From an uncultured Rickettsiales bacterium (GTDB lineage Bacteria > Myxococcota_A > UBA796 > UBA9615 > CAYRNR01): a stretch of 64,000 bases of DNA. The DNA is taken from contig CAZITQ010000003.1 in the NCBI GenBank assembly GCA_964542165.1, positions 12,451 through 76,450 on the forward strand. Direction: 5' to 3'. How positions within the stretch are numbered: the stretch's first letter is position 1; every line of letters starts with the position of its first letter. A model generated the notes under the pieces. The model saw only the letters and a list, made by a program, of their open reading frames with translations. It was not told the DNA's origin and made no database searches. Of this stretch, positions 2,258 through 57,124 are shown in pieces. A program made the translations under genes and the position numbers.

Positions 2258-2363
2258 GGACGCGCGAGGGTAGACGTTTTCCACCGACGTGGTATGTTCC
2301 CCCGCGCTCCGGCGCCACGCAGGCGCCGTCGACACCGCGAAACTCCAGCGAAAGGACGCTGTC

Positions 2364-3515
2364 GTGAGACTCACCGCGCTTCTGCTGACCTCCATGCTCC
2401 TGCTCGCGTGCAACGGTGGCACCTCCACCGCCGGCGGGACCAACTCCGGCGGCGTGACCGCCACCTCCGGCATCGAGGGCCTCGAGACCGAGGGCGACCC
2501 GCTGGTCGCCACCTACGACGGGGTCGAGATCCGGCTCTCCGAGCTCGACGAGGACGCCAAGCCCCACATCATCAAGGCCATGGTGGAGATCGAGCGCGCC
2601 CGTAGCGGCCTGCTCGAGCGACGGATCTTCGAGGACCTGGTCGAGCGGGAGGCCACCGCCGCCGGCATGGAGTCCGAGGAATGGCTGAAGGAGGAGATCG
2701 AGGGCAAGGTCGCCGAGGTCACCGACGAGGAGGCCCAGGCCTTCTTCGACGCGAATCCGCCCCGGGGTCCCCAGACCTTCGAGCAGATGAAGCCTCAGGT
2801 GGTCCAGCACCTGAGCCGCCAGCGCCAGGCCGAGCGGGCCGCTGAGCTGACCAAGGACCTCAAGGCCAAGTACAACGTCGCCATCACGCTGGAGCCCTTC
2901 CGCCAGGAGGTCTCCGCGGACGACGATCCCTTCAAGGGCCCCGAGGACGCGGCGGTCACCATCGTCGAGTTCGCCGACTTCCAGTGTGGCTACTGCGCCC
3001 GCACCCGCGACACCACCGACGAGATCCTCGAGACCTACCCGGACCACGTGAAGTTCGTCTTCCGCGACTCGCCCATCGAGAAGCACCCGCGGGCGATCTT
3101 CATGGCCCAGGCCGCCAACTGCGCCATGGACCAGGGCAAGTACTGGGAGATGTACGACCTGCTGTTCGACAACATGCGGGCCACCAAGGACGAAGAGCTC
3201 AAGGCCCACGCGGTCACCCTGGAGCTGGATACCGCCGTCTTCGACGAGTGCTACGACAGTGGCAAGTACGCCGAAGAGGTGGAGAAGGACATGGCCGACA
3301 GCAAGTCCGTGGGCGTCAGCGGCACCCCCGCGTTCTTCGTCAACGGCCGGATGATTTCCGGCGCCCAGCCGTTCCAGGCATTCGCCGCCATCATCGACGA
3401 CGAGCTGGATCGCGCCGGCATCGAGCTGCCCGAGAAGGTCGAGGCCGAGGCCGACGAGAAGGCCGACGAGAAGGCCGACGAGAAGGCCGACGAGGCCGAG
3501 GAAGCCAAGGGCTAG
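2364..3515 (+). CDS. DsbA-like thioredoxin-fold lipoprotein with SurA-N-like chaperone segment
   Basis: GTG at 2364 follows AAAGGA. Lipoprotein signal LLLLAC. Thioredoxin CxxC motif FADFQCGYCAR plus GVSGTPAFFVNG. The ORF track starts it at 2289. Confidence 0.8.
   Translation: MRLTALLLTSMLLLACNGGTSTAGGTNSGGVTATSGIEGLETEGDPLVATYDGVEIRLSELDEDAKPHIIKAMVEIERARSGLLERRIFEDLVEREATAAGMESEEWLKEEIEGKVAEVTDEEAQAFFDANPPRGPQTFEQMKPQVVQHLSRQRQAERAAELTKDLKAKYNVAITLEPFRQEVSADDDPFKGPEDAAVTIVEFADFQCGYCARTRDTTDEILETYPDHVKFVFRDSPIEKHPRAIFMAQAANCAMDQGKYWEMYDLLFDNMRATKDEELKAHAVTLELDTAVFDECYDSGKYAEEVEKDMADSKSVGVSGTPAFFVNGRMISGAQPFQAFAAIIDDELDRAGIELPEKVEAEADEKADEKADEKADEAEEAKG
3450..3494 (+). repeat. 12-bp tandem repeat (gccgacgagaag x3.75) encoding (ADEK)n tail
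   Basis: Read directly from the sequence. Three perfect 12-bp units plus a partial unit at the 3' end of the DsbA-like gene. Confidence 0.9.
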
Positions 3516-3582: not shown

Positions 3583-5784
3583 ATGCCACCCGACAAGACC
3601 GTTCTGGAACCCGTCTCCGGCGCGAGCGCCGGCTCGCCGAACCTCCCGGCCAACATCGGCGCCTACCGGATCCTCCGGGTCCTCGGACACGGGGGCATGG
3701 GCACGGTCTACCTGGCGCGTCACACCTCCGAACCCGTGGCCCAGCGCCAGGGCGGAGACGTGGCGCTGAAGGTCATGCACCCCCACCGGTCCCACGACGA
3801 GCAGTTCCGCAAGCGATTCGAGCGCGAGGCCCGGTTGGGGATCGACCTGACCCACCCCGGCATCGTGCGAGCCTTCGACCTGGTCGTGGACGGCGAGACC
3901 CTGGCCATCGCCATGGAGTACGCGCCGGGCAAGACGCTCGCCGAGCTGCTGGCGGAGCGCCAGGGAGCTCCGTTCCCGGTGGACTGGTCCCTGGCCATGT
4001 TCCGCCACCTGCTGGACGCCGTCGCCGCTGCCCATCGGGCGGGGGTGATCCACCGGGACATCAAGCCGGACAACATCGTGATCGGCGCGGACGGCAGCCC
4101 CAAGATCCTCGACTTCGGGATCGCCAAGGAGAGCGACTCCACCGACACCAAGACCGGCGCGGGCATGGGCACGGTCTGCTACATGGCCCCCGAGCAATAC
4201 GTGGATGCCAAGGCGGTGGACGCGCGGGCGGACGTGTACGCCCTGGGCATGACCCTGTACGAGATGCTGGCGGGCCGGCTGCCCTGGCCTGCGGAGACCA
4301 CGGATTTCCTGGCCATGAACCTCAAGGCCCAGGGCAAGGTGGAACCCCTGGCGGCGGTGAATCCCCAGATCCCAGCGGAGCTCTCCGACCAGGTCTCCGC
4401 GGCCATCGCCGCGGAAGCGGACGCCCGGATCCCGACGGTGGAGGCCCTGGCCAGCGCCCTGACGCCCTTCGAGCGGACCCCTGAGCAGGCCCAGACCGAG
4501 GCCCTGCTGGCCGAGGCGCGGCAGCAGGCAGAGCGGGAGCTGGCCGAGGCCCGACAGGAGATCGAACGACAGCTGGCCGAGGCGAAGCAGCAGGCCGATG
4601 CTCTGCTCGAGGCCGCCCGAGGCGAGGTGACGTCGAGACCGCCCGCGAGGTCGAAGCCGGGAGCTGGCCGTTGGGGCTGGCTCTGGGGAGTAGCAGGCGC
4701 GGTCATGGGAGCTGGGCTGACAGCGGTCATAGTGGTGCCCTTGTTGGTCTATCTGGAGAGCCGAAACGAGGTGCCTGAGACCGAGGCCGAGGCCGAGGCC
4801 GAGGCCGAGATCGAGACCGAGGCCGAGACCGAGACCGAGGCCGAGACCGATCCCGTCGCCGCCCGATACCGGGGAAAAACCATTCGCCGGTCCGAACTGG
4901 ACGAGGAAGTCAGATCCCACCTGGTCAAGGCCGAGCTCGACATCGAACGGGCACGTTCCGGCCTGCTGGAGAGAAAGATCTTCGAGGATCTGGTGGCGCG
5001 GGAGGCGGAGGCGGCCGGAACGGACTCGGAGACCTGGCTGAAGCGGGAGATCGAGGACAGGGTGCCCGACGTGACCACCGCGGAGGCCCGAGCGTTCTTC
5101 GACAAGAATCCGCCGCGGGGGAACCAGACGTTCGACCAGATGAAGGACCGGGTGAAGCAGCACCTCGCTCGTCAGCGGGAGGCAGAGCGAGCTGCCGAGG
5201 TGACCAAGGAACTCAAGGCCAAGTACGGCGTCGAGATACTGCTCGAGCCCTTCCGCCAGGAGGTCTCCGCGGACGACGATCCCTTCAGGGGCCCCGCCGA
5301 CGCGCCGGTCACGATCATCGAGTTCGCGGACTTCCAGTGCGGCTATTGCGCCCGAACCCGGACCACCACCGACCAGATCCTCGAGGAGTACGCCGGACTG
5401 GTGAAATTCGTCTTCCGCGACTCGCCCATCGAGAAGCACCCCCGCGCCATCTACATGGCCCAGGCCGCCAACTGTGCCAACGAGCAGGGCCAGTACTGGG
5501 AGATGTACGACCTGCTTTTCGACAACAACCGCGACACCAAGGACAGCGAGCTCAAGGCCCACGCCCGGACCCTGGGGCTGGACACGGCGGCATTCAACGA
5601 CTGCTACGACAGCGGGCGGTACGCGGAGGAGGTGGAGAAGGACATGGCCGATGGCAAGTCCGTCGGCGTGAGCGGCACACCGGCGTTCTTCGTCAACGGT
5701 CGAATGGTGTCCGGTGCCCAGCCCTTCCAGGCCTTCGCGGCCGTCATCGACGACGAGCTCGAGATCGCTGGCATCTCCCGCTGA
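3583..5784 (+). CDS. Ser/Thr protein kinase, single TM helix, periplasmic DsbA-like thioredoxin domain (fusion)
   Basis: Hanks kinase motifs: GHGGMGTVY, VALK, HRDIKPDN, DFGIAK, APE. TM helix WGWLWGVAGAVMGAGLTAVIVVPLLVYL. The C-terminal ~330 aa is highly similar to the preceding gene, including FADFQCGYCAR. Confidence 0.85.
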   Translation: MPPDKTVLEPVSGASAGSPNLPANIGAYRILRVLGHGGMGTVYLARHTSEPVAQRQGGDVALKVMHPHRSHDEQFRKRFEREARLGIDLTHPGIVRAFDLVVDGETLAIAMEYAPGKTLAELLAERQGAPFPVDWSLAMFRHLLDAVAAAHRAGVIHRDIKPDNIVIGADGSPKILDFGIAKESDSTDTKTGAGMGTVCYMAPEQYVDAKAVDARADVYALGMTLYEMLAGRLPWPAETTDFLAMNLKAQGKVEPLAAVNPQIPAELSDQVSAAIAAEADARIPTVEALASALTPFERTPEQAQTEALLAEARQQAERELAEARQEIERQLAEAKQQADALLEAARGEVTSRPPARSKPGAGRWGWLWGVAGAVMGAGLTAVIVVPLLVYLESRNEVPETEAEAEAEAEIETEAETETEAETDPVAARYRGKTIRRSELDEEVRSHLVKAELDIERARSGLLERKIFEDLVAREAEAAGTDSETWLKREIEDRVPDVTTAEARAFFDKNPPRGNQTFDQMKDRVKQHLARQREAERAAEVTKELKAKYGVEILLEPFRQEVSADDDPFRGPADAPVTIIEFADFQCGYCARTRTTTDQILEEYAGLVKFVFRDSPIEKHPRAIYMAQAANCANEQGQYWEMYDLLFDNNRDTKDSELKAHARTLGLDTAAFNDCYDSGRYAEEVEKDMADGKSVGVSGTPAFFVNGRMVSGAQPFQAFAAVIDDELEIAGISR
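4777..4850 (+). repeat. Imperfect hexanucleotide repeat (gaggcc/gagacc)n encoding an (EA/ET)n acidic linker
   Basis: Read directly from the sequence. Encodes ETEAEAEAEAEIETEAETETEAETD immediately after the TM helix of the kinase. Confidence 0.9.
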
Positions 5785-5843: not shown

Positions 5844-6623
5844 ATGCCCCCCCGCCCCCTCCCCGGACAGCGGACCGAGCTCCTGGGCCTGCCCGTGCAT
5901 GCCCACGACCTGTCCTCGCTGCTGGCCACCGTCGACCGGAGGGGGGGGGGGGGGGGGGGTAACAGGTGGCCCTACGCCAACGTCCACACGGTCAACACGG
6001 CCCTGGAACAGCCCGACGTGGCCCGGTTCATGCGCAGCGCGGACCTGATCTACTGCGACGGCAACGGCATCCGGCTGGGGGCCTGGCTGGGGGGGCAGCA
6101 GCTGCCGCCGCGGATGACGGGGGCCGACTGGATCGCCGACCTGGGGCGCCTGGCGGCGGACCGGGGATACCGCCTGTTCTGGCTCGGGGGAGCGGAGGGA
6201 GTGGCCGAGGCCGCGGCGCGGCGGCTGACCGAACTCGCGCCCGGGTTGGCTGTCGCGGGGACCCACCACGGCTACATCGACAAGCGAGGCCCGCAGACCG
6301 ACGCCGTCGTCGACCAGATCAACGAGTCCGGCGCCGACATCGTGCTGGTGGGCTTCGGCACGCCGCTGCAGGAGCGCTGGATCGCCGAGCACCGGGATCG
6401 ACTGGACGCGCCCGTGGTGTGGGCCCTGGGGGCCACCGCGGACTTCCTGTCGGGTCACGTCTCCCGGGGACCGGCCCTGTTGCACCAGCACGGCGCCGAG
6501 TGGCTGGCCCGACTGCTGGTGGACCCCAGGCGGCTGTGGCGCCGGTACCTGATCGGCAACACGCGCTACCTGACGCGGGTCGCGGCGGACCGCTGGGCGC
6601 ACCGGAGAGGGGGCCGACGGTGA
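5844..6623 (+). CDS. WecB/TagA/CpsF family glycosyltransferase
   Basis: Family-typical LLGLPVHA..L..LL, ANVHTVN, DLIYCDGNGIRLG, ADIVLVGFGTPLQERW and ALGATADFLSG. Contains the G19 tract. Confidence 0.8.
   Translation: MPPRPLPGQRTELLGLPVHAHDLSSLLATVDRRGGGGGGNRWPYANVHTVNTALEQPDVARFMRSADLIYCDGNGIRLGAWLGGQQLPPRMTGADWIADLGRLAADRGYRLFWLGGAEGVAEAAARRLTELAPGLAVAGTHHGYIDKRGPQTDAVVDQINESGADIVLVGFGTPLQERWIAEHRDRLDAPVVWALGATADFLSGHVSRGPALLHQHGAEWLARLLVDPRRLWRRYLIGNTRYLTRVAADRWAHRRGGRR
5941..5959 (+). repeat. Homopolymeric G19 tract inside the glycosyltransferase CDS (encodes RGGGGGG)
   Basis: 19 consecutive G counted in the sequence. In frame as given. Confidence 0.95.
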
Positions 6624-9813: not shown

Positions 9814-11022
9814 TCACCCCTGGGTAGACGATTGAACCCCAGGGGATCGGGACCTCTCTTCCAGCAGCTTGCGCAGCGTGCGCAGCCGTTTGCCGTTGCG
9901 GCGGTACCGCTCCACGACGACCTCGTGTGTCTCGTCGACAGACCCGAGCGCAGGCTCCTCCTCATCGATGTAGCGCGCGGCTACATCGCGGAACTCGGTC
10001 TGGACTCGCACGAAACCCTCGTACATGGTCGGATCGAAATGGGATCCCGCTCCCTCCTCGATGATGGCGCACGCCTTCTCGTGGGAGAACGGTTCCTTGT
10101 AGGGTCGCTTGGACGTCAGCGCGTCGTACACGTCGGCCAGGGCGACGATCCGCGCCGACAGCGGGATGTCGTCCTCCTTGAGGCCGAAGGGGTAGCCGTC
10201 GCCGTTCCACTTCTCGTGATGGCAGTAGGCGATGTCCCGCCCCATCTGCAGGAATGAACGGTAGTGCAAGCGGGACTCGATCTGCCGCAGCGTGTCCCCG
10301 CCGATGACGCTGTGGGTCTTCATCACGCGCCACTCTTCCGCATCCAGCTTGCCCGGCTTGAGCAGGATGTGGTCGGGCACGCCGACCTTGCCGATGTCGT
10401 GCAGCGGCGCCGAGCGCCACACATCCCACACGTATTCCTCGGTGATGTACCCGACGTACAGCGGATGGTCCGCGATCGCGGTCGCCAGCAGGCGGGAGTA
10501 CTCGGCCATCCGCTCCAGGTGATTGCCCGTATCCGAGTCGCGGGACTCCACGAGCTTGGCCAGGCCGAAGATCGCCACGTCCTGGGTCTCGCGGATCTGT
10601 TCGTCGGGGGCGTTGGCCGCCTGGAAGATGTGGTCCTCGAGGAAGCGGATTCTCCGCTGCAGGGTGGTGCGCTCACCGCTCCAGCGCAGGGCGTTGAGCA
10701 GGTCGCTGTCTCCTACCTCGAGCGAGGCCATCCCGCCCTTGCTGTCCGGCGCCAGGGGCGTGCCGTTGCGGCGGACCAGCAGGGACAGGTCGGGGTTGAT
10801 CTTGCGCAGGGTGACCCGCAGCTCCTCGGCCGTCCTCGGGTCGAGGCCGCTGGCCAGGACGACGTCGAGGGGGGGTTCGGTGCGCGCGAGCACCGAGCGG
10901 GCATCGTGACTGCTGCGGACCGTGGTGACCGTGTGACCCTCGGCTTCCAAGGACCGGACGAGTCCGTCGTCCTCGTGTCCCTTGGTCTGTACGAGCAGCA
11001 CCTGTTGGCGGCTCTGGGCCAT
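9814..11022 (-). CDS. Response-regulator receiver + HD-GYP domain protein (c-di-GMP phosphodiesterase type)
   Basis: N-terminal receiver-like domain (VLLVQT...DVVLAS). HD-GYP motifs HDIGKVGVPD and HHEKWNGDGYPFGL. RBS GGGAGGA. Confidence 0.85.
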   Translation of the reverse strand: MAQSRQQVLLVQTKGHEDDGLVRSLEAEGHTVTTVRSSHDARSVLARTEPPLDVVLASGLDPRTAEELRVTLRKINPDLSLLVRRNGTPLAPDSKGGMASLEVGDSDLLNALRWSGERTTLQRRIRFLEDHIFQAANAPDEQIRETQDVAIFGLAKLVESRDSDTGNHLERMAEYSRLLATAIADHPLYVGYITEEYVWDVWRSAPLHDIGKVGVPDHILLKPGKLDAEEWRVMKTHSVIGGDTLRQIESRLHYRSFLQMGRDIAYCHHEKWNGDGYPFGLKEDDIPLSARIVALADVYDALTSKRPYKEPFSHEKACAIIEEGAGSHFDPTMYEGFVRVQTEFRDVAARYIDEEEPALGSVDETHEVVVERYRRNGKRLRTLRKLLEERSRSPGVQSSTQG

Positions 11023-11113: not shown

Positions 11114-11131
11114 AAAAAAACCCGGACGGGC
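11114..11131 (-). terminator. Weak intrinsic terminator after the OmpA-family gene
   Basis: The minus-strand RNA reads GCCCGUCCGGG followed by U7 directly after the stop. The stem is short, but a U7 run stands out in this GC-rich sequence. Confidence 0.35.
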
Positions 11132-12487
11132 TCAGGAGTCGGTCGTGCGGCGTGCCAGGATGAACGAGATGGTGTGGCGCTCGACCCGGCGACCCAGGGT
11201 GGAGACGAGGCCGTCCACCTCCCCCTCCTCGGGGATCTGGAGCAGGGCCGGTTCCACCCCGGCGTCGTCCGCCAGGAACTTGCGGGTCGCCACGGCGCGA
11301 CGGCGGGTCAGCTGGACGTTGTACTCCCGGCCTCCGCCGGGATCGCCGTGCCCCAGGACGACCACACGCCCGAGCTCGGGGTGGTCGTTGAGGTAGGCAC
11401 CCACCGCCCGGAGGATCTCCTCCGACTCGCCGGTGAGCTCGGTCTCACCCTCGCGGAAGGCGACGGGGGTCGCGAGCAGTACCTCGATGTAGTCGCCGTC
11501 ACCGCGGACCACCGCGCTCTGGGGCAGGACCACCACGGGTAGGGGGGCTCCGCCGGTCTCCACGTCCGGGAGCTCGGCCACCGCGGGCTGGGATTTCTTG
11601 AGCAGGCGGAACAGGTCGACCTGGAGGCCGAAACGCACGTCGGGGGTCCCGTACCCCGGCGCGGCGCCGAACCCCAGTAGAGCACCGACAGCGACGCCCT
11701 CGGCGGCCACGAAGTTCCCACCGAGACGCAGCTCCATGGGATTGTCCCAGCGCACGCCTTCCACCTCGCCGGCCCACGCGGCCGACACGCGCCAGCGCTC
11801 GTGCAGGCGTACTTCCACCCCCAGGCCGTAGGTGAACGCGGATCCCGCGGTCATGCCCGACCACTCGGCTGGAGGTCGGAATCGCGCCCCCAGGGAGGAC
11901 ACCACCCGCACCGGACCGGGCCGGGTCTCGATGCCGATGGAGGCCAGCCCTTCGACCACACCCGAGGAGGCGAAGGCCGCTCGCATGCCGGTCGGCACCT
12001 GCAGCGCCGGCCGCAGGACCATGCCCACCGGGAATCGGTCGGCGTCCAGGACGCGGAATGCGCCTCCGAACCGCAGGTCCCCGGGTCCCCAGGCTCCGAT
12101 GGGCGTGTCGGGATCGGGCCACCATCCGGACTGGTAGGCCACGAACGGCATCCCGGCCCACACCGAGATCCCCTTGCCCAGGGCCACCGCCAGGGTCGCC
12201 TCACCACCGATCCGGTCCCGGATCACCGGGTTCTCCCGTTCCGTGTCGGAGACCAGCAGGATCGGAGCGTGTTCTCCCTGGAACAGGAAGGAACCGCGGA
12301 GGGTCATCGCCGGATCGACGGTGGCTCCGCCGACCCCCAGGACGCCCCCGGGCAAGGGCTCCACCCGGTACCGCATGGAGTCCAGGGTCGGCCCGCTGGC
12401 GGCCCCGGCCGACCCGGCGATCGCCAGCGCCACCCCCAGGGCGAGGACCCACGGGAGCGCCCCGCTCCGCTCGCGTCGACGCATCAC
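11132..12487 (-). CDS. OmpA-family protein (N-terminal beta-barrel-like region + OmpA C-terminal peptidoglycan-binding domain)
   Basis: Signal peptide. The C-terminal region F..G...L..E....L...G.....VVLGHGD..G..EYN..L...RA......L is OmpA_C-like. The start overlaps the upstream stop. Confidence 0.8.
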   Translation of the reverse strand: MMRRRERSGALPWVLALGVALAIAGSAGAASGPTLDSMRYRVEPLPGGVLGVGGATVDPAMTLRGSFLFQGEHAPILLVSDTERENPVIRDRIGGEATLAVALGKGISVWAGMPFVAYQSGWWPDPDTPIGAWGPGDLRFGGAFRVLDADRFPVGMVLRPALQVPTGMRAAFASSGVVEGLASIGIETRPGPVRVVSSLGARFRPPAEWSGMTAGSAFTYGLGVEVRLHERWRVSAAWAGEVEGVRWDNPMELRLGGNFVAAEGVAVGALLGFGAAPGYGTPDVRFGLQVDLFRLLKKSQPAVAELPDVETGGAPLPVVVLPQSAVVRGDGDYIEVLLATPVAFREGETELTGESEEILRAVGAYLNDHPELGRVVVLGHGDPGGGREYNVQLTRRRAVATRKFLADDAGVEPALLQIPEEGEVDGLVSTLGRRVERHTISFILARRTTDS

Positions 12488-13461
12488 TTCATCTCCCCTC
12501 GTCCGCGGTGGGCGATGGGCCCGTCGTCGGACTCCTCGTGGGCCCCTGGGGACAGCTCCGGCAGGGGCACCGCGTCGAGCATCCGGATCGTCACGCTGTC
12601 CGTGTCGGTCACCGACTCGTCGGGCCAGGATGTGGTCGCCAGCACCAGGGACGGGTCAACGCCCACGATCTGGGCCACCAGCCTCCGCAAGCGCGCGGCT
12701 CGGCGCTGGGCCAGGGAGGCCTCCTCGGCGCTGCCGTGGACCTCGGCGCGGCCGATTCCGTCGGGCCCCTCGGTCCTCGCCAGCCGCTCCCGCGTGGCGG
12801 GCGACGCCCCGGCCGAGCCCCGACGCATGCCGGCGATGCCCACATCCACCCGAACGGAGCCGCCCACGGCGAAGCGGCTGAGCCACAGCCGGAGCACCTC
12901 CAGTCCGTCGTCCCGCAACTCGTGGCTGCCCTCGTGGAAGAGCAGGTCGTGGTCGAAGTGTCCCACCACCGACTCCGCCGCGGGTCCCACGGATCCCGAG
13001 TCCACGACCCGATCGCCGATGCAGATCCGGTCCCTGGGCAGGCCGTCGTCGTCCAGGGCCGGGAGCTCGAAGGGTGGCCCGGTCACCATGTGCCCGACGG
13101 CCCAGCCGTTTTCACCGAATCCGACCACCTTGACCCGTCCGGACTCCATCCAGACCGGATCGTCGCGGAAGGCCGCGTCACCGCGGACCGCGGGCACCCG
13201 ACGGTAGGCGATGAGGATGCTCCCCAGCTCCACCGCGTCGAGCCCCCGTACGTCCAGGTGGTAGACCGGATCCTCCCCGGCGTCGGGCGCCCCCGCCGGG
13301 GATCCGCGGGTGTAGACCCCCCCCCCCCCCCGCGCGGCCCCCGCGCCGCCGGCGAGGGGGTGGTGAGCCGCTACCGGGGGTGCGCCGCGGGGCCGGGCCG
13401 CTCTACCACGACCCGCGGCTCGGCCGCCGCTCCGATCGGGCAGGTGACGAGACAGAGCCAA
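12484..13461 (-). CDS. OmpA_C-like domain protein, apparently frameshifted at its 5' end (see findings)
   Basis: The body reads well from about GEDPVYHLDV. The C-terminus HGSAEEASLAQRRAARLRRLVAQIVGVDP resembles an OmpA-type PG-binding motif. A lipoprotein-type signal peptide with RBS sits in another frame at 13481. Confidence 0.5.
   Translation of the reverse strand: MALSRHLPDRSGGRAAGRGRAARPRGAPPVAAHHPLAGGAGAARGGGGVYTRGSPAGAPDAGEDPVYHLDVRGLDAVELGSILIAYRRVPAVRGDAAFRDDPVWMESGRVKVVGFGENGWAVGHMVTGPPFELPALDDDGLPRDRICIGDRVVDSGSVGPAAESVVGHFDHDLLFHEGSHELRDDGLEVLRLWLSRFAVGGSVRVDVGIAGMRRGSAGASPATRERLARTEGPDGIGRAEVHGSAEEASLAQRRAARLRRLVAQIVGVDPSLVLATTSWPDESVTDTDSVTIRMLDAVPLPELSPGAHEESDDGPIAHRGRGEMK
13317..13331 (-). 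repeat. Homopolymeric C15 tract (G15 on the coding strand, encodes RGGGG)
   Basis: 15 consecutive C counted on the plus strand. Confidence 0.95.
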
Positions 13462-13477
13462 CCCAGCAACAAGCGTC

Positions 13478-14053
13478 TCACCTGAACGCTACCTCCACTC
13501 CCCCGTGCACGTGCCAGCCCCCCAGGTCCATCCCCTCCTTCGTCCTCCACTTGGCCCAGCGGTGTCCCCCCTCCAGCGTGAGGTACAGCCCCTCGAAGCG
13601 TGGGTGGGGCGCCATGGAATACGTGGTCTCGGGCGTGAGCAGGATCGAGAGCCCCCCGCCGATCTGGGCCCCCGGTTTCACCCCGTGGACGAGCTCTCCG
13701 GCGGATTCGCGGTAGAAGGTCCACAGCGGTCCCGCCACCACATAGGGGATCACCGGTTGATGGAGCTCGACCTCCAGCCGCCCTTCGATCCGCAATCCGA
13801 AGGTACCCAGCTGCATGCGCGCGACATCCGTGGACGGCAGGGCATCCTCCTTGAGCAGGGCGGTACCCTTTCGCCAGCTGTACGAACCCTGGAGGCCGAT
13901 CCCCACGGCGGGGAGGGGCCGCACGACCACCTGGGCCCAGATCTGAGGGGCCCCGGGTTTCGTGTAGACCGTCTCGACCTCGGGGGACCGGGTGCCCGAC
14001 CAACCCCCGCTCAGGGTCAGGGCGACGCAGAGCAGCTCGGGCCAGCCACTCAT
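13478..14053 (-). CDS. Hypothetical small outer-membrane beta-barrel-like protein
   Basis: N-terminal hydrophobic signal. Alternating hydrophobic pattern. Terminal ..GGVEVAFR. ATGA and GTGA overlaps with both neighbours. Confidence 0.5.
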   Translation of the reverse strand: MSGWPELLCVALTLSGGWSGTRSPEVETVYTKPGAPQIWAQVVVRPLPAVGIGLQGSYSWRKGTALLKEDALPSTDVARMQLGTFGLRIEGRLEVELHQPVIPYVVAGPLWTFYRESAGELVHGVKPGAQIGGGLSILLTPETTYSMAPHPRFEGLYLTLEGGHRWAKWRTKEGMDLGGWHVHGGVEVAFR

Positions 14054-14595
14054 GCCTGACTCCTGGCCCTCAGCTGCTGGCGCTGGATCCGGAACACCAG
14101 GTCCACCAGCTGTCGCTTGACCGACTTGGGCGGGTCCACGAAGGTGAAGCCCAGGAACTGCCCGTCCTCGAGGTTCTGGCGACGCACCAGGCGCCCCTCC
14201 ACCTGGACCGGCCTCTGGCTCGGGTCATCGGTGCAGCGGATGATCAGGGGAACTTGCTCCCCGACCTCGCAGGGGGCCTGACCGTAGAATCCCACACCGC
14301 CCTCGGACAGGCTCACGTCACGCTCGGCAACCTGCTGCCGCTCGGCCAGCTGGCCCACCACCTCGAGCAGCGAACCCATGTACTCCACACAGCTGTCCAG
14401 AGCCTCGGTCAGGACCGGCTGGGCTTCGGGTCGGATCCTCAAGATGCTCTCCACCATGTCCGCGTGCCGCGTCCGGAGCGCGAACAGGGGATCCTCGTCC
14501 AGGGGGGTGTCGAACGGACCGACGGACACCCGGGCCTTGAGGCTCACCCGGAAATGCCTTCGCTTCTCGCTCGCGCTCTCTGTGTTCGAACTCAC
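14050..14595 (-). CDS. PilZ domain protein (c-di-GMP receptor type)
   Basis: GTG start after GGAGGAATTCC. RRHFR (RxxxR) motif near the N-terminus and a later DVSLSEGGVGF (xSxxG) motif. Confidence 0.7.
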   Translation of the reverse strand: MSSNTESASEKRRHFRVSLKARVSVGPFDTPLDEDPLFALRTRHADMVESILRIRPEAQPVLTEALDSCVEYMGSLLEVVGQLAERQQVAERDVSLSEGGVGFYGQAPCEVGEQVPLIIRCTDDPSQRPVQVEGRLVRRQNLEDGQFLGFTFVDPPKSVKRQLVDLVFRIQRQQLRARSQA

Positions 14596-14619
14596 GGAAT
14601 TCCTCCAGCGACAGCGCGC

Positions 14620-14635
14620 TGCAGGATTCGGGCCA
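14620..14635 (-). promoter_or_regulatory. Candidate sigma-54 promoter TGGCCC-N5-CTGCA upstream of the PilZ operon
   Basis: The minus strand reads TGGCCCGAATCCTGCA with correct GG-N10-GC spacing, about 25 nt upstream of the GTG start. Confidence 0.45.
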
Positions 14636-14687
14636 GAGAGAAACCAGCCCCCGTCACGGAAAACTGGCGTTCTACCGTCGAGAAATC

Positions 14688-14701
14688 GTCAGGGGTTTGA
14701 C
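14688..14701. promoter_or_regulatory. GTCA-N6-TGAC palindrome (candidate enhancer/UAS)
   Basis: gtcaggggtttgac lies about 55 nt upstream of the -24 element. The same palindrome type occurs upstream of the other two sigma-54 promoters. Confidence 0.45.
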
Positions 14702-14817
14702 GGGAACGTCAGGAGACCGTCCCGTGTCGGGACTCGCGGGAGCGGTTCTGCTGCGAGTGCGCAGCGCTCGTCTGCAGCAACCGCGACCTCTGACGCGGCG
14801 AGCGCAGCTCGTCCGCG

Positions 14818-15192
14818 TCAGAGCTTCTTCTGGAGGGTCTGGGCCTTGTGGTGCGCCTGTTGCCCGCCGTAGGCCCGCAGGGCCCGGTTGCACATGCGCA
14901 GGGAGTGGATGCGATCGTCGAGCTCCTCGAGGCGGCGGTGCGCCGTCTGACGGAAGAGCGCCGCTGCCTCTTTCCAGGCACGGAACGCCGCCTCCTCCGC
15001 GGGGGTCGGAGGGCCGTGCCTTCGCTCGGCTGCGGCTCGAATCGCGCGGTCGCTCAGGTGGAGCTCCGGGGCCATGCCCGCCAGGCTGTCGTCGTCCGCG
15101 ACGGCCACCGCCTGGGACAGGCGCTGGAGCTTGTGGGTCGCCGCCTTCAGCAGCTCTTGCAGGTCGCTGTCAGCTCGCGCGGGCAGCTCCAT
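14818..15192 (-). CDS. Hypothetical helical protein downstream of fliS (possible FliT-like chaperone, by position only)
   Basis: ATG 15192 is preceded by GGAGGACTCCT. All-helical, charged sequence. No motif recognised. The ORF track extends it to 15237. Confidence 0.4.
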   Translation of the reverse strand: MELPARADSDLQELLKAATHKLQRLSQAVAVADDDSLAGMAPELHLSDRAIRAAAERRHGPPTPAEEAAFRAWKEAAALFRQTAHRRLEELDDRIHSLRMCNRALRAYGGQQAHHKAQTLQKKL

Positions 15193-15577
15193 AGGAGTCC
15201 TCCTGGTAGATACGCACGGCCTCGTCCCAGGTGTCACGCAGCTCCACGAGCTTTTTGTGCAACACCTCGAGGTCGGCTTCCATGGGCCGTTGGTGGGCGT
15301 CGAGCATCACCCGCGACAGGTAGGTGTAGTGCCGGAACAGCTCCACGGCCACCGAACCGCCCGTCTCGATGCTCAGGCTCTCCTGGAGAGCGACCACGAT
15401 CCGGCGCGCCCGGAACAGCTCTTCCTTGCGCACCCGCGGATCGTCGCTCTCCATCGCCCGCTCCATCATGGAGACCGCTCCTTCGCACAGCTCCACCAGC
15501 AACTGCTGCGGACTGTGGGTCTCCAGTGTCGTGCGCTGATAACTCTGCAACTTCGATGCCATGGGGTTGGCGTACAT
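15170..15577 (-). CDS. fliS: Flagellar export chaperone FliS
   Basis: SPQQLLVELCEGAV, ..IVVALQESL..E.GG.VA.EL...Y.YL...L and LRDTW match the FliS pattern. Position after fliD. Confidence 0.85.
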   Translation of the reverse strand: MYANPMASKLQSYQRTTLETHSPQQLLVELCEGAVSMMERAMESDDPRVRKEELFRARRIVVALQESLSIETGGSVAVELFRHYTYLSRVMLDAHQRPMEADLEVLHKKLVELRDTWDEAVRIYQEDSYGAARAS

Positions 15578-15578: not shown

Positions 15579-16925
15579 TCAGCTACTCCCGTTTCCCAGC
15601 GTGCTGGCGAACAGCGACGTCACGAAGCTGCTCATCGACTGCAGCTCGGCCAGCGTCATCTCAAGGTTGGTGAACTGCTGCCGTAGCGTGTCCTCGTACG
15701 ACTCGAGCCGCGACTCGTCCGCGGCGATCTGGTCCTCGAATGCCTCGATCTGGTCGTCCAGGCTCTCGGTGCGCAGGGCGATCGTCCCCTCGTCGGGATC
15801 CACGATCACGTCCAGCTTCCCGTCCAGGGACTGGAAGAGCCCGTCCTCACCCGCCAGCATCGTCATCACGTCCTGGGGGTGGTCGTTGATGGCAGCCAGG
15901 AACTTGTCCGTGTCCAGGGCGATGGACCCGTCCTGCTGCGTGGAGAAGCCCATCACCGACGTACCCACCAGGTCGCCGGCGGCGTAGGCCCCACCCATGG
16001 AGCTCTGCAGGGCCGCCTGCACCGAGCGCAGGACCGACTCGCCGGCCAGCGCAGATGCGTTGTCGTTGACGTCCAGGCCCGAGTAGGAGTCGATGAACGA
16101 CATGGCCTGGTTGTAGGAGTCCACGAAGGACTGCACCGCCTCCAGCACGCCGTCGGTGTCCGGCGCCACGGTCACCACCGAGCTGCCCTCGGACTTGGCC
16201 TCGAAGGTGAGACCGGGGATGACGTCCTCGAAGGTGTTGGTCTCCGAGTAGACCGGCAGGCCCGCGATGCTCAGCTCCGCGTCCTGGGCGCTGATCTGCT
16301 CGGTGAAGCTCAAGGCCGCCCCGGTGATCCCCGTGGCGTCCATCTCGATGGTCTGGGACGATCCCGTTTCCTCGCTGGTCACCACCAGGTGGTAGTTACC
16401 CGCGTCGGCCCCGTCGTCGAGCACGTAGGCCTGGACTCCATCGATGTTGTCGTTGATGTAGTCCGCCAGCCCCGAGAGCGAGGTGTTGCCGTTTGCGGCG
16501 TCGATGTCGATCACCGTCGCGGGGTTGGCCCCCGCCACGGAGATGGTCATCGAACCACCGGTGAACACATCGTCGGTCTGGGAGTCGAAGCCGTTGGAGA
16601 CCTCCAACTCGGACTGGGCCAGCGAGACCACGTCGATGTTGAAGGTCCCCGGCTGCCCTCCGGTTGCGGCGGTGACGGCCAGCACCTCTTCGTCGGTGCT
16701 GTTGGCCGTCACCATCCGCAGATCGGAGGGGTCGGAGTAGTCGGACACGACGGTCTGGATATCCTCCAGCAGCGAGTTGAAGGACTGCAGGAGGGACCGC
16801 CGGGTCTCCAGGTTGCTCTGCTGCTCGCGCAGGGTCTCGGTAGACGCCCCCGCCACGGCCACGTAGGCCTCGATGATGGAGGTGGTGTCGAGTCCGCTGA
16901 CCATCCCATCGACGGTGACGCCCAT
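15579..16925 (-). CDS. fliD: Flagellar filament cap protein FliD
   Basis: Starts MGVTVDGMVSGLDTTSIIEA (FliD_N). C-terminal RLESYEDTLRQQFTNLE (FliD_C). The ORF track extends it to 16982. Confidence 0.9.
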   Translation of the reverse strand: MGVTVDGMVSGLDTTSIIEAYVAVAGASTETLREQQSNLETRRSLLQSFNSLLEDIQTVVSDYSDPSDLRMVTANSTDEEVLAVTAATGGQPGTFNIDVVSLAQSELEVSNGFDSQTDDVFTGGSMTISVAGANPATVIDIDAANGNTSLSGLADYINDNIDGVQAYVLDDGADAGNYHLVVTSEETGSSQTIEMDATGITGAALSFTEQISAQDAELSIAGLPVYSETNTFEDVIPGLTFEAKSEGSSVVTVAPDTDGVLEAVQSFVDSYNQAMSFIDSYSGLDVNDNASALAGESVLRSVQAALQSSMGGAYAAGDLVGTSVMGFSTQQDGSIALDTDKFLAAINDHPQDVMTMLAGEDGLFQSLDGKLDVIVDPDEGTIALRTESLDDQIEAFEDQIAADESRLESYEDTLRQQFTNLEMTLAELQSMSSFVTSLFASTLGNGSS

Positions 16926-16932
16926 GACGACC

Positions 16933-17358
16933 TCAGATCTGTCCTTCCAGGAGGGTCCCACCCAGCTCCTCGAGCGCGGCAACCACGTCGAGATAGTCGG
17001 CAGGTGGGAACTCCCGGATGACTTCGCCGCTCTCGCCTTCGATGACCTTGACGATGTAGCGGCCGGTGGCTTCGTGAACCTCGGTGCTCACGCGGATTCC
17101 AGAGCGGTCTGCCTGGTCGGCAGCCGCGGCGATCTCATCCGCGATCGCCTTGCGGATGGCCTCGTGCGAACGCTCGGTGACGCCCGGCTGGGCCTTCGCC
17201 GGTCCCGGTTCGGGCTCGGGACTCGGTTTGTTCAGCACCACCTCCGGGCTCCCGCTCGCCCCGCTGGCGGGAGCCCGCCGGGTGGCCGCGTCCCCCTTGG
17301 CCGGTCGCATCGCTTCCGCGACCGTCCAGGGAACCTGAGTGGGGATGGTGTTACTCAC
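16933..17358 (-). CDS. flaG: FlaG family flagellar protein
   Basis: C-terminal VSTEVHEATGRYIVKVIEGESGEVIREFPP..YLDV is the FlaG signature. GTG start. Confidence 0.8.
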   Translation of the reverse strand: MSNTIPTQVPWTVAEAMRPAKGDAATRRAPASGASGSPEVVLNKPSPEPEPGPAKAQPGVTERSHEAIRKAIADEIAAAADQADRSGIRVSTEVHEATGRYIVKVIEGESGEVIREFPPADYLDVVAALEELGGTLLEGQI

Positions 17359-17423: not shown

Positions 17424-18242
17424 CTAGCCGAGCAGACTCAGGGCCATCTGCGGAGCGAAGTTGGCCTGGGCCAGGACCGAGACTCCGGCCTGCGCCAGGA
17501 TCTGGTTCTTGGTCAGCTGCGCGGTCTCGCTGGCGAAGTCCACGTCGCGAATCTGGCTCTCGGCCGCCGTCATGTTCTCGACGCTGACCTCCAGATTGGA
17601 GTACGCGTGGCTCAGCCGGTTCTGCGCCGCACCCAGCGACGCGCGGTGGCTGGACACCGACGAGATGGCGGTGTCGATGCTGGCCAGGGCGCTCGAGGCG
17701 CCGGCGGCGGTCGACACGGTCAGGGTGTCGATGGCCAGATTGCCAGCGGACATGCCCTCGAGGGTGATCCCGATGGTGTGGCCATCGTGGATGCCGACCT
17801 GGACGTTCATCGCGGTGGTCGACCCGTCCAGCAGGTTGGTGCCGTTGAACTCGGTCACCTCGGCCAGCCGGCTGATCTCGTCCCGGATGGCGTCGAACTC
17901 GGTCTGCAGGTAGGCCCGCTCGTCGTCCCCCAGGGTCTCCGAGGCGGACTCCATCGCCAGCTCTCGCATACGCGTGAGGATGGAATGGGACTCGCCCAGG
18001 GCGCCCTCGGCGATCTGCACGACGCTGATGCCGTCGTTGGTGTTGCGCATCGCGACCTTGCTCGACGCGATATCCGCACGCAGGTTCTCACTCACGCCCA
18101 AGCCGGCGGCGTCATCGGCAGCGCGAGTGATCCGGAGGCCCGACGAAAGACGCGCGTAACTCTGCGTCATTGCCGAACTGCTACGATTCACGTTCTTCTG
18201 AGCCATCAGAGAAGCAACGTTGTGGTTGATCCTCATCGACAT
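17424..18242 (-). CDS. fliC: Flagellin (short, 272 aa)
   Basis: MSMRINHNVASLMAQ..., LSSGLRITRAADDAAGL and C-terminal ILAQAGVSVLAQANFAPQMALSLLG. Confidence 0.95.
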   Translation of the reverse strand: MSMRINHNVASLMAQKNVNRSSSAMTQSYARLSSGLRITRAADDAAGLGVSENLRADIASSKVAMRNTNDGISVVQIAEGALGESHSILTRMRELAMESASETLGDDERAYLQTEFDAIRDEISRLAEVTEFNGTNLLDGSTTAMNVQVGIHDGHTIGITLEGMSAGNLAIDTLTVSTAAGASSALASIDTAISSVSSHRASLGAAQNRLSHAYSNLEVSVENMTAAESQIRDVDFASETAQLTKNQILAQAGVSVLAQANFAPQMALSLLG

Positions 18243-18331: not shown

Positions 18332-20026
18332 ATGAATCAACCCACCGAACCCCACCGGAGCCCGGCGTTCGAGCGCAACCTCAACGCGTTACATGGCTCC
18401 GATCCGGGCCTCGCCGAGCGCCTGTGTCTGCCCGTCGACGGATCCCATGTGAAGGCGGTGGAGGGCGGGCCGCCAGTCTACAAGGTGCACCGGTACTTCT
18501 ACCCCTTCGTGGTGCCGGCGGAGAGACAAGACACCGTTCTTTCGGGGCTGGATGGGTCCCGGCAGCTGTTGCTGTTCGGCGCGGGGGTGGGCGAGCTCCT
18601 CGAGGCGGCGCTGCAGCGGCATCCGGAGGTGCCGGTCGTCGTCTGGGATCGGGATCCCTGGCTCCTGCGCTGGGTCCTGGGGCGCCTCGATCTCACCGAT
18701 CGCATCGCGAACGGCCAGGTCCAGCTGAAGCTGGGGATCGATCTGCTGGACCTGCTCGAGGACCCGGGGGATCGGATTCGAATCGACCATCCGTTCCTGG
18801 GCGAGGTGTACCGGTTCGAGCGAACGTTGCTCGATCGGGGTCTGGGCGAGGGGCGCGCCCTGTTGCGCGCCGGAACCCTGTTCGTGGACGATCTGGCGCG
18901 GGCACTCGCGCACGAGAGCTATTCGATCTACACGCTGGACACCGACCGGCTGTCCCGCGAAGAGCTCGAGTACACGGTTCGTCGATTCCGGCCCGACCTG
19001 CTCGCCGCGATCAACTACAGCGAGGGGACGGCGGAATTCTGTCGTGACGTGGGGTGCGATCTGATGTGCTGGGAGATCGATCCCAGCACCTCCAGGATGC
19101 GTCCGCTGACCGGCCCATCCGAGCGCGCCCACGTGTTCACCTACCGAAGGGCCAACGTGGAGCTGTTCCGCAACGCCGGGTTCGGCCGCGTGGAGTACCT
19201 GCCCCTGGCCGCCGACACCCGTCACCGCCGCCCCCTGGACCTCGACCCAGAGGATCTCTCGGAGTACGGCGCGCCCGTCACCTACGTCGGGGCCAGCATG
19301 GTCGCGGAAGGCCTCGAATTTCGCGACAAGTTCCTGACCCGGTACGCGGCCTGGGCGACCGCACGCGGATCCGATCCCGCGGTCGGAGCAACGCTCCTGG
19401 GCCGGGTCCTCGGGATCCAGCGCCAGGATCTCTCCCGCTACCGCGTGGAGGAGTTGCTGGGCCAGCTCGGCGGGTCCTTCCTCGCCGACGAGAGAGGGTC
19501 CGACGACCCCGAGGATCCGGCGATGCTCGTCGCGGAGATCGCTGCCTCCGAGAAACGTCTGACGTACGTGGCCAACCTGGCCTCGTCCGGGATCGTGGTC
19601 TGGGGCGACAAGGGCTGGTCCCAGGTCGAGCGCTTCGGAGCTCGCTATTCCGGCAGGTACGCCCGTCACACGGACGAGCTGACCAAGGTCTACAACGCCT
19701 CGACCATCAACGTGGACATCGGACGGCTCTACCAGTCCGACATCGTGACCATGCGGGTGTTCGACGTCCTGGCCTGTGGGGGCTTCCTGCTCGCGGAGTA
19801 CAGCGAGGCTCTCGAGGAGGTCTTCGCCCTGGGCGAGGAGGTCGAATGCTACCAGACCCTCGACGAACTCCGCGCCAAGGTCTCGTATTATCTGCGACGC
19901 CCGGATGAGGCGGCGAGCATCGCCCGTCGTGGGCTCGAAGCAGTACGCGAACGGCACTCGATCGCCGCCCGCGTACGCCACATGCTCGACCGCATGGGCC
20001 GACCCCCCGGATCGGGGGGAAGCTAG
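18332..20026 (+). CDS. Putative flagellin-modification glycosyltransferase (Maf-like N-terminus + CgeB/GT1-like C-terminus)
   Basis: N-terminus F.RNL.AL...DP.LA..L and LLFGAGVGEL resemble motility-accessory-factor proteins. C-terminus INVDIGRLYQ..IVTMRVFDVLACGGFLLAEY......F..GEEV..Y...DEL is CgeB-family like. Sits between the two flagellin genes. Confidence 0.55.
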   Translation: MNQPTEPHRSPAFERNLNALHGSDPGLAERLCLPVDGSHVKAVEGGPPVYKVHRYFYPFVVPAERQDTVLSGLDGSRQLLLFGAGVGELLEAALQRHPEVPVVVWDRDPWLLRWVLGRLDLTDRIANGQVQLKLGIDLLDLLEDPGDRIRIDHPFLGEVYRFERTLLDRGLGEGRALLRAGTLFVDDLARALAHESYSIYTLDTDRLSREELEYTVRRFRPDLLAAINYSEGTAEFCRDVGCDLMCWEIDPSTSRMRPLTGPSERAHVFTYRRANVELFRNAGFGRVEYLPLAADTRHRRPLDLDPEDLSEYGAPVTYVGASMVAEGLEFRDKFLTRYAAWATARGSDPAVGATLLGRVLGIQRQDLSRYRVEELLGQLGGSFLADERGSDDPEDPAMLVAEIAASEKRLTYVANLASSGIVVWGDKGWSQVERFGARYSGRYARHTDELTKVYNASTINVDIGRLYQSDIVTMRVFDVLACGGFLLAEYSEALEEVFALGEEVECYQTLDELRAKVSYYLRRPDEAASIARRGLEAVRERHSIAARVRHMLDRMGRPPGSGGS

Positions 20027-33304: not shown

Positions 33305-33333
33305 CCTGGAACCGTCCTATCCCTGACGCTGTG

Positions 33334-40944: not shown

Positions 40945-40961
40945 AGCAACGAACGTGCCAG
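40945..40961 (-). promoter_or_regulatory. Sigma-54 promoter CTGGCAC-N5-TTGCT upstream of motA
   Basis: The minus strand reads CTGGCACGTTCGTTGCT, a near-perfect TGGCAC-N5-TTGCW, about 40 nt upstream of the motA start. Confidence 0.65.
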
Positions 40962-41182: not shown

Positions 41183-41196
41183 GTCAATGCCTTGAC
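41183..41196. promoter_or_regulatory. GTCA-N6-TGAC palindrome (candidate enhancer/UAS for the motA sigma-54 promoter)
   Basis: gtcaatgccttgac, about 225 nt upstream of the -24 element in a 343-nt intergenic region. Confidence 0.45.
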
Positions 41197-53209: not shown

Positions 53210-53249
53210 GGTTCCTCCGGCCCCACCACGGGGCACCGGAGGTCACAGC

Positions 53250-53266
53250 TTGCAAGCTACGTGCCT
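53250..53266 (-). promoter_or_regulatory. Sigma-54 promoter AGGCAC-N5-TTGCA upstream of flgB
   Basis: The minus strand reads AGGCACGTAGCTTGCAA with GG-N10-GC spacing, about 42 nt upstream of the flgB ATG. Confidence 0.65.

Positions 53267-55712: not shown

Positions 55713-57124
<1,412 letters not shown>

Follow-up and report, generated by a model that had tools for sequence, protein, structure and literature searches.

A candidate flagellar motor accessory cassette joining a PilZ protein to three envelope proteins in uncultured marine bacteria, probably Myxococcota

Introduction

Flagellar motors have repeatedly gained lineage-specific scaffolds in the periplasm and at the outer membrane, which raise the torque or stabilise the stators. 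MotY, a component of the T-ring in the polar motors of Vibrio and Pseudomonas, holds the stators from the periplasmic side, and motY is a late, sigma-28 gene in Vibrio. The H-ring and basal-disk/Pfl proteins of Vibrio and Campylobacter are expressed together with the basal-body genes under sigma-54. To our knowledge, parts lists for such scaffolds are available for a few cultured groups only, namely Vibrio, Campylobacter, Helicobacter and the spirochaetes. PilZ proteins may also be part of the motor, as exemplified by the tetrameric PilZ protein FlgX, a structural partner of the stator in Campylobacter that is located under each stator unit (PMC11725899). Here we analyse a 64,000-nt stretch of contig CAZITQ010000003.1 from an uncultured bacterium (assembly GCA_964542165.1), which has a GC content of about 69% and is referred to below as the window. 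It carries a flagellar gene cluster and, within it, a cassette of four genes, g1 to g4, for a PilZ protein and three predicted envelope proteins. Based on synteny, co-regulation and folds, we tentatively suggest that the cassette is a lineage-specific accessory of the flagellar motor, combining an envelope scaffold with a stator or rotor partner that senses cyclic diguanosine monophosphate (c-di-GMP). We consider this suggestion a strong possibility, while stopping just short of expecting it to be correct.

A four-gene operon conserved beside flagellar genes

The genes in the window were called by codon-position GC, and the GC content at third codon positions (GC3) of the four minus-strand open reading frames (ORFs) is 0.87-0.88. 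A preliminary description of the locus, made from the DNA sequence alone, had presented the four genes, running from 14595 to 11132, as coupled by short overlaps, and this is what the sequence holds: g1 and g2 overlap by ATGA, g2 and g3 by GTGA, and g3 and g4 by GTGATG (TGA/ATG). The four genes are one translationally coupled unit, with GTG as the start codon of g1 and g3 and ATG as that of g2 and g4. The ribosome-binding site (RBS) GGAGGA is located 5 nt 5' of the GTG of g1, and a terminator-like hairpin with a T7 run directly 3' of the g4 stop is the end of the operon (Table 1). The operon was also said to lie immediately downstream of fliD and fliS. It does lie downstream of these genes, but a 139-aa ORF, here called x, is placed between fliS and g1.

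Conservation beside flagellar genes, on which the preliminary description had made its proposal depend, was found in every relative with enough flanking sequence, and in a three-gene lineage as well. In each such four-gene locus the order fliC-flaG-fliD-fliS-x-g1-g2-g3-g4 is identical. The four-gene form is present in about nine distinct lineages with 41-93% identity, and the cassette proteins of the most distant four-gene relatives are 41-55% identical, a divergence about that of FliD and FliS. The families are rare: among 5.8 billion protein clusters, we identified 17 relatives of g4, 12 of g3 and 9 of g2, while 1.84 billion representatives, searched exhaustively with a profile, yielded 13 relatives of g3, and a scan of 185,579 species genomes recovered g3 from six of them. 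The genome scan made use of an alignment of close g3 sequences and not of the combined alignment with the distant lineage, in which no stretch was conserved enough.

This distant lineage came to light among the 13 g3 relatives, nine of which match just the N-terminal 170-190 or so profile residues, a stretch that covers the beta-rich N domain and reaches into the C domain. We examined three of the nine, and each belongs to a three-gene cassette in which the PilZ gene is followed by a gene for a barrel-like protein of 217-235 aa and another for a g3-like protein of 361-423 aa. The three-gene form is located directly after fliS-x where the contig reaches that far (L013, L014/15), and there is no g4 in this second lineage. 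At 11324-12992 of L013, the three-gene cassette is followed by a convergent pair of motB-like (342 aa, with an OmpA domain) and motA-like genes.

Judging from these comparisons, the linkage of the cassette to flagellar genes is real. Likewise, the ratio of non-synonymous to synonymous substitution rates (dN/dS), which is 0.10-0.42 across the cassette and 0.16-0.18 for fliS, indicates that the cassette is under purifying selection. One could nevertheless propose that the genes are chance or decaying ORFs, or annotation noise in a GC-rich genome, and that the promoter and palindrome described below are coincidental. The copy of g3 in the window is indeed broken in its frame, and matches to the sigma-54 consensus with two mismatches are no commoner than chance, with 44 in the whole window versus 50 expected. 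However, the frame break is an assembly artefact, the GC3 of 0.87-0.88 and the dN/dS of 0.1-0.4 are those given above, and the gene order, overlaps, promoter and upstream activating site (UAS) have been kept across lineages down to 41-55% identity. The comparative data have already refuted this explanation, to which we attach next to no probability.

Myxococcota are known for gliding motility, not for swimming. The cassette is carried by a clade of uncultured flagellated marine bacteria with a GC content of 66-69%, which probably belongs to the Myxococcota, an affiliation favoured because of the GC content, the best matches to MXAN/TraB-type proteins and the presence of kinase-DsbA fusions. 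The Rickettsiales label of the third-party annotation (TPA) records of metagenome-assembled genomes (MAGs) is implausible given the GC and gene content. MAGs of marine Myxococcota were previously noted to carry flagellar genes (PMC11937823).

Promoter and upstream activating site

We aligned the region upstream of g1 over five diverged loci (the window, L006, L009, L002 and L004) and observed only three invariant blocks, namely TGACG-N5-GTCAA-N5-TGACG, TGGyCCGnnTCCTGCA and the RBS. In the window, the putative UAS is a triple alternating half-site of the form TGAC-N6-GTCA-N6-TGAC (TGACgttcccGTCAaaccccTGAC) that includes a GTCA-N6-TGAC palindrome at 14688-14701, and the sigma-54-type promoter of g1 (TGGCCCGAATCCTGC, with GG at -24 and GC at -12) lies 43 nt before the start codon. 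From centre to centre, the UAS and the promoter are 71.5-72.5 bp apart in each of the five loci, and the sequence between them is not conserved.

The exact triple half-site is present in two copies in the window, one before g1 and one before flgB, where none is expected and none was obtained in 100 shuffles. The second copy is in the opposite orientation to the first. The flgB-flgC-fliE... operon has a sigma-54-type promoter (AGGCACGTAGCTTGC, one mismatch to the consensus), whose centre follows that of the UAS copy at a distance of about 72 bp, the same spacing as at g1. Among the relatives, the exact site was identified once per locus, upstream of the PilZ gene, in 12 loci from about seven lineages, all of which have the four-gene form; L021, with the same four-gene order, has no exact copy. 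The upstream region of the distant three-gene lineage is devoid of half-sites and contains GGCACGGAnCTnGCT before the PilZ gene, at the place equivalent to the g1 promoter.

The shorter GTCA-N6-TGAC palindrome occurs five times in the window compared to 1.1 expected, and three of the copies are upstream of g1, motA and flgB. The copy at motA is located in a long intergenic region, which also contains a sigma-54 promoter that is identical to the consensus (TGGCACGTTCGTTGC, no mismatches) about 40 nt before the likely true start of motA, the MotA Pfam domains starting at residue 72 of the longest motA ORF. Of the two remaining copies, one (33333-33346) falls exactly at the flhB/flhA junction and the other (51429-51442) inside fliF. 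The preliminary description had already pointed to a sigma-54-type promoter and to a palindrome in common with flgB and motA, and the case has grown stronger than was claimed through the footprint conservation, the triple site and the 72-bp spacing.

Because the cassette has its own promoter, with the same enhancer-type site and the same 72-bp spacing as flgB, it probably shares its sigma-54 activator with the flgB rod operon, to judge from the site architecture. The cassette would therefore be expressed at the basal-body stage and not at the late FliA stage. Independently of what the cassette does, the conserved TGAC-N6-GTCA-N6-TGAC element 72 bp from sigma-54 promoters is a candidate for the sequence to which the clade's flagellar sigma-54 activator binds.

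The cassette proteins

The g1 protein had been described as a PilZ protein of the c-di-GMP receptor type, and both profile and motifs agree. It matches the Pfam family PilZ (PF07238) with an E-value of 2.8e-10 and 40.9 bits versus a cut-off of 22.5, as do eight of eight orthologues, although the match covers only residues 87-169, on profile positions 21-102. The RxxxR motif is located at residues 12-16 (12-27 including beta1) and the second motif, SLSEGG, at residues 95-100, and R12, R16, S97 and G100 are invariant in all eight orthologues. The second motif has the general form [S/N/D]hSxxG, with SLSEGG in the lineage of the window and NLSESG, DLSAGG, NISVSG or DISVGG elsewhere; PA2989, which has a Ser variant of this motif, binds c-di-GMP (bioRxiv 10.1101/814665). 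Neither a PilZN/YcgR N-terminal domain nor a second domain was identified in the 181 aa with Pfam and NCBIfam. From its sequence, the g1 protein is predicted to be a cytoplasmic c-di-GMP receptor.

An insert of about 60 residues separates beta1 from the remainder of the barrel in g1, at the position of the insert in tetrameric PilZ (tPilZ) proteins. It consists of two stretches that are nearly free of Pro and Gly (with a single Gly) and are joined by a Pro-containing turn, PEAQP; on its own it matches helical-bundle chains weakly, and it probably forms two helices. A weak match to XCC6012 (PDB 3PH1; E 0.24) has near-identical residue offsets, and the other PDB matches are likewise weak and to PilZ proteins or helical bundles. 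By this layout the protein is tPilZ-like, but with neither a match to the tPilZ model nor the interlocking motif (see below) we do not count it as a member of the family.

The description of g2 as a barrel-like protein of about 190 aa holds in its length (191 aa) and in its barrel matches, but these matches are below the curated threshold. The best of them, to the MXAN_2562 outer-membrane barrel family (NCBIfam NF040596), has an E-value of 1.1e-7 and 31.7 bits, with a cut-off of 100, and three of ten orthologues match Pfam OMP_b-brl (PF13505), with a best E-value of 5e-4. A PDB sequence search gave nothing meaningful. The signal peptide is clear in distant orthologues, about eight amphipathic strand segments can be discerned in the alignment, and dN/dS is 0.10-0.24. 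We conclude that g2 probably encodes a small outer-membrane beta-barrel of about eight strands. It has no significant similarity to the barrel region of g4, and thus nothing indicates that the two are paralogs.

In g3, a signal peptide with an AxA site is followed by an N domain rich in beta structure and by a C domain that is OmpA/MotB-like but divergent and contains a disordered insert of about 35 aa. The protein has no sequence match in Pfam, NCBIfam or the PDB. An AlphaFold2 (AF2) model with a predicted local distance difference test (pLDDT) score of 61.5 (70-87 in the core) has a beta-alpha-beta-alpha-beta-beta arrangement at residues 143-277. When this model was compared to the PDB with Foldseek, most of the top 50 matches were OmpA-like domains, with a probability of 1.0, E-values from 4.9e-4 and template modelling (TM) scores to the target of up to 0.64; all four matches below an E-value of 0.001 were OmpA-like peptidoglycan-binding domains, and the top targets include OprF, OmpA, MotS, MotB and PomB. 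The model thus supports an OmpA/MotB-like fold for the C-terminal half, and the Arg of the LAQRRA motif is conserved. Two proteins with OmpA_C-type ends had been claimed for the operon; g4 has the Pfam match and g3 has the fold, but g3 has neither a family match nor the peptidoglycan-binding Asp. The further claim that g3 is an OmpA-like lipoprotein stands for the fold only: we rejected the lipoprotein family, since the lipobox Cys is not conserved whereas the AxA site of signal-peptidase-I type is.

The g4 protein matches Pfam OmpA (PF00691) with an E-value of 3.3e-10 and 40.6 bits versus a cut-off of 27.2, and has PDB profile matches to Pal, OprF and OmpA, the best at 2.6e-9. The GHGD and RRRA motifs, which hold the diaminopimelate-binding Asp and Arg, are invariant in 15 orthologues. 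An alignment of the C domain of g3 to the OmpA_C domain of g4 with hhalign placed the expected motifs opposite each other, yet was not significant (E 0.2, probability below 1%). Upstream of OmpA_C, g4 has a signal peptide, a beta-rich region of about 265 aa with a last strand ending in ...QVDLF, and a Pro/Ala-rich linker. The AF2 model has a pLDDT of 54.3 and is all-beta at residues 33-294, and its Foldseek match is limited to the OmpA domain. Based on this model, the N-terminal region is probably an outer-membrane barrel of 12-14 strands.

These protein features raise the question whether g1 alone is a motor protein, acting as a c-di-GMP brake or clutch like MotL, FlgZ and YcgR, while g2-g4 are general envelope proteins of the swimming programme that, for example, reinforce the envelope or the pole outside of the motor. 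The architecture of g4 is of the ordinary OmpA/OprF type, g2 resembles generic small outer-membrane barrels, no homology to known motor rings was found, and PilZ genes often sit alone in flagellar clusters (PMC11725899). However, such a division of labour would leave unexplained why g2 and g3 are restricted to this flagellated clade, why they are constantly coupled in translation to the PilZ gene, directly after fliS, and why the trio of PilZ, barrel and g3 has been kept as a unit in a second lineage without g4. We therefore consider it unlikely, albeit not far-fetched.

Assembly artefacts

Read from GTG 13481 in the window, the frame that encodes the signal peptide of g3 reaches a stop at 13371, and the body of the protein lies in another frame after a 15-G run. 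Both features belong to a segment of 86 nt (Table 1). A contig from the same organism (JGI Ga0115649_1000206; 145,926 nt) has exactly 86 nt fewer and an intact g3 (P0018), and the contigs of runs X2 and X3, which are independent assemblies, jump from 13319 to 13406. No reads cover 13360-13383 and hardly any the positions from there to 13407, and poly-G junk contigs of thousands-fold depth are stacked at 13312-13359. Because it is missing from the JGI contig and the independent assemblies, and is without read support, the 86-nt insert is an artefact of the assembly and not biology. We had considered the poly-G tract as a phase-variation switch of g3 but discarded this idea, as the in-frame stop comes before the tract, the segment is missing elsewhere, and there are no reads.

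A second artefact of this kind, a 19-G run at 5941-5959 (site 5941-5972), takes the place of about 30 nt in the gene for a WecG-like glycosyltransferase. Independent contigs have TGGTCGCCGCGGGGGGGCGGTACACGTTGG at this site, which restores the similarity to the orthologue in L006. Other G/C homopolymers at 3573, 41071, 61814 and 63877 may be similarly suspect.

Interpretation of the cassette

If the cassette is a motor accessory, the products of g2, g3 and g4 would assemble into a scaffold around the LP-ring and stator zone, anchored to the outer membrane and to the peptidoglycan, with g3 as a periplasmic part of MotY-like layout. Such a scaffold might hold the stators or brace the bushing, as the T- and H-rings and the basal disks do elsewhere. 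The g1 protein would act on this motor from the side of the cytoplasm, with MotA or FliG as its target, and could be a c-di-GMP-dependent brake or clutch, or a FlgX-like stabiliser of the stator. We infer the localisation of the proteins, their joint assembly, the binding of c-di-GMP and the target of g1 alike.

In favour of this interpretation we counted the constant gene order and rarity of the cassette, its purifying selection, the folds of g3 and g4, the conserved motifs of g1, and the sigma-54 activator gene within the cluster together with the conserved promoter and UAS. Furthermore, genes for c-di-GMP and sigma-54 control are interleaved with the motor genes, and a c-di-GMP control of motility would be in keeping with the HD-GYP, GGDEF and HDOD genes found around the cluster. 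The HD-GYP gene, a separate transcription unit (Pfam HD_5, 1e-27), is next after g4 in most four-gene loci (the window, L002, L006, L008/9 and L017), and other genes take this place in L004/L018, L020, L021 and the P0008 contig.

The same neighbourhood could be taken to suggest that the cassette is a surface module under c-di-GMP control that serves the transition from motile to attached cells. Such a module, gated post-translationally by PilZ, could export or anchor an adhesin or polysaccharide at the outer membrane; its placement in the flagellar regulon would then ensure readiness at the flagellated pole. Gating of envelope export machines is a common role of PilZ proteins, the cassette has HD-GYP or GGDEF genes at its flanks, and genes for capsule and glycosyltransferases are nearby. 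However, the cassette contains no synthase, inner-membrane platform, secretin, ATPase or candidate cargo, the g1 protein is soluble and stand-alone with no membrane partner encoded in the cassette, and the strict place after fliS and the enhancer in common with flgB point to the basal-body programme. We regard a surface module as improbable.

Several observations weigh against a motor accessory. With regard to g1, PF16823 (tPilZ) had no match at E <= 1 in eight orthologues, and the interlocking motif [DENH]x[KR]h[DEN] is not in the insert of any of the eight, although FlgX likewise has no such motif (PMC11725899). With regard to g3, the canonical peptidoglycan-binding Asp is replaced by Gly (V-D-V-G-I-x-G), followed by the insert of about 35 aa, and its binding to peptidoglycan is therefore doubtful; the confidence of its AF2 model is also mediocre, at a pLDDT of 61.5. 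The barrel of g4 is deduced from the secondary structure of a low-confidence model (pLDDT 54.3), in which the fold of the N-terminal region is unplaced. The preliminary description had called for a comparison with MotY, FlgT and FlgO/FlgP, which revealed no homology in any component: none of the cassette products has a Pfam match to MotY_N, FlgT, FlgO/P or Pfl at E <= 0.1, and MotY chains are not among the top Foldseek matches of g3. The fraction of sequence words present in metatranscriptome runs from the same study was 0.00. Finally, three envelope proteins do not have to work jointly with a PilZ protein in the cytoplasm, and membership in an operon does not in itself show that they form a complex.

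We also considered retention of the stator across the envelope, by which a periplasmic ring of g2-g4, anchored to the outer membrane and the peptidoglycan, would hold MotB from the outside and a c-di-GMP-binding, tPilZ-like oligomer of g1 would hold or release MotA on the inside. This is a speculative scheme that we would not expect to be correct, albeit with an appreciable chance. If true, the motors of these flagellated marine Myxococcota would have their stator occupancy set by the level of a second messenger, by means of an independently evolved counterpart of the T- and H-rings plus FlgX.

Returning to the suggestion of a motor accessory in general, the cassette provides a candidate parts list for unstudied, uncultured flagellated marine bacteria, probably Myxococcota, in which a putative envelope scaffold and a predicted c-di-GMP receptor are joined in one operon that shares its enhancer with the rod genes. 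Confirmation of this suggestion would mean that a MotY-like stator anchor has arisen independently in this group, would add a c-di-GMP-competent relative of the structural PilZ proteins of FlgX type, and would bear on how second messengers control stator occupancy.

The surrounding gene cluster

The window otherwise contains a complete flagellar cluster of the Gram-negative type, which includes flgB-C-fliE-F-G-I-J, flgD-E, motA-motB-fliL-M-N, flhB-A and fliA, and furthermore flgF-G-A-H-I-J and flgK-L. The coordinates of the cassette, its regulatory elements and the neighbouring genes are listed in Table 1.

Table 1. Coordinates of the features discussed in the text, in positions of the window
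Feature	Position	Strand	Description
g1	14050-14595	minus	181 aa, stand-alone PilZ protein
g2	13478-14053	minus	191 aa, exported, probable small outer-membrane beta-barrel
g3	12484-13481	minus	about 303 aa when intact; secreted; OmpA/MotB-like C domain
g4	11132-12484/7	minus	450 aa; signal peptide, probable barrel, OmpA_C
86-nt insert in g3	13320-13405	minus	15-G homopolymer and in-frame stop
Terminator-like hairpin and T7 run	11118-11133	minus	directly 3' of g4 stop
Sigma-54-type promoter of g1	14621-14635	minus	-24 GG/-12 GC
UAS, triple alternating half-site	14688-14711	minus	upstream of g1
Second exact UAS copy	53320-53343	plus	upstream of flgB (52829-53236, minus)
Sigma-54-type promoter of flgB operon	53252-53266	minus	one mismatch to consensus
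GTCA-N6-TGAC palindrome	41183-41196	plus	long intergenic region upstream of motA
Sigma-54 promoter of motA	40946-40960	minus	perfect consensus
ORF x	14818-15237	minus	139 aa; between fliS and g1; overlaps fliS end
fliS	15170-15577	minus	upstream of cassette
fliD	15579-16982	minus	upstream of cassette
flaG	16933-17358	minus	
Flagellin	17424-18242	minus	
HD-GYP type protein	9814-11022	minus	c-di-GMP phosphodiesterase-like (HHEKWNGDGYP)
HDOD protein	41250-42077	minus	directly upstream of motA
Sigma-54 activator	55709-57124	minus	head of flagellar cluster
GGDEF diguanylate cyclase	57413-58675	minus	head of flagellar cluster
564-aa gene	18332-20026	plus	between two flagellin genes, opposite strand
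MgtE_N-type domain protein	46346-46897	minus	183 aa; between fliJ and hook genes
FlgJ-like protein	24423-25160	minus	rod-binding domain and M23 peptidase domain
Ser/Thr kinase-DsbA fusion	3583-5784	plus	fused to DsbA-like thioredoxin domain
Second DsbA-like protein	2289-3515	plus	
MopE-type repeat protein	62120-63859	plus	six Cu-binding repeats, ASH/Ig domains
WecG-like glycosyltransferase	5844-6623		contains 19-G run

ORF x precedes the cassette in all relatives, and its C terminus is strongly conserved (...RAYGGQQAHHKAQTLQKKL). It gave no family match, and could encode a FliT-like or other export chaperone. The orthologues of the 564-aa gene in the relatives match Pfam Glyco_trans_1_2, which makes this gene a candidate for a flagellin glycosyltransferase. 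The MgtE_N-type protein fits the FlgY/MotE/FlbB family of E-ring proteins (reviewed in PMC13023049), and the FlgJ-like protein has no muramidase domain. Outside of these flagellar functions, a Ser/Thr kinase is fused to a DsbA-like thioredoxin domain and a second DsbA-like protein is encoded close by, and another protein combines MopE-type Cu-binding repeats with ASH/Ig domains; these architectures are unusual.

Comparison with known systems

The preliminary description had not recognised this combination of genes as a described flagellar module, and our literature search likewise found no published description of it. The individual parts can nevertheless be set against known systems. The g3 protein is similar to MotY (PDB 2ZF8, 8Z5N) in that it has about 300 aa, is secreted, combines a non-OmpA N domain with an OmpA/MotB-like C domain, and is encoded beside flagellar genes. 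It differs from MotY in having no sequence match to MotY/MotY_N, in its insert of about 35 aa and in the missing peptidoglycan-binding Asp. Furthermore, no gene for a SEL1/MotX-like partner is found within the cassette itself, and the operon headed by g1 is predicted to depend on sigma-54.

The g1 protein resembles the tPilZ proteins FlgX, XCC6012 and PA2989 in being a stand-alone protein of about 180 aa, in which an insert of about 60 aa separates beta1 from beta2 and the C-terminal helix is basic. As in PA2989, there is an RxxxR motif and a Ser that replaces D/N in the second motif and, like flgX, g1 is located beside flagellar genes. It differs from FlgX in having kept the motifs for c-di-GMP binding, whereas binding has been lost in FlgX (PMC11725899). 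With YcgR, MotI and FlgZ, the g1 protein has in common that it is a predicted PilZ receptor for c-di-GMP tied to flagellar genes, with genes for c-di-GMP turnover nearby. Unlike these proteins, it has a single PilZ domain with an internal insert and no PilZN/YcgR N domain.

In its layout, g4 is reminiscent of OmpA, OprF and Pal: its barrel-like N-terminal part is joined by a Pro/Ala linker to an OmpA_C domain in which Asp and Arg are conserved. However, its N-terminal region is far larger than the 8-strand barrel of OmpA and matches no barrel family, and all of the about 15 members of the g4 family belong to this cassette beside flagellar genes.

As a whole, the cassette is comparable to the H-ring (FlgO/FlgP/FlgT) and to the basal-disk/Pfl proteins, which are also lineage-specific additions to the motor in the periplasm or at the outer membrane and are encoded in flagellar clusters. 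It differs from them in having no sequence similarity by Pfam and in its composition of two probable barrels, one protein of MotY-like layout and one PilZ protein. The module thus resembles known kinds of systems, namely periplasmic stator scaffolds and PilZ effectors of the motor, but is built from unrelated or highly diverged parts.

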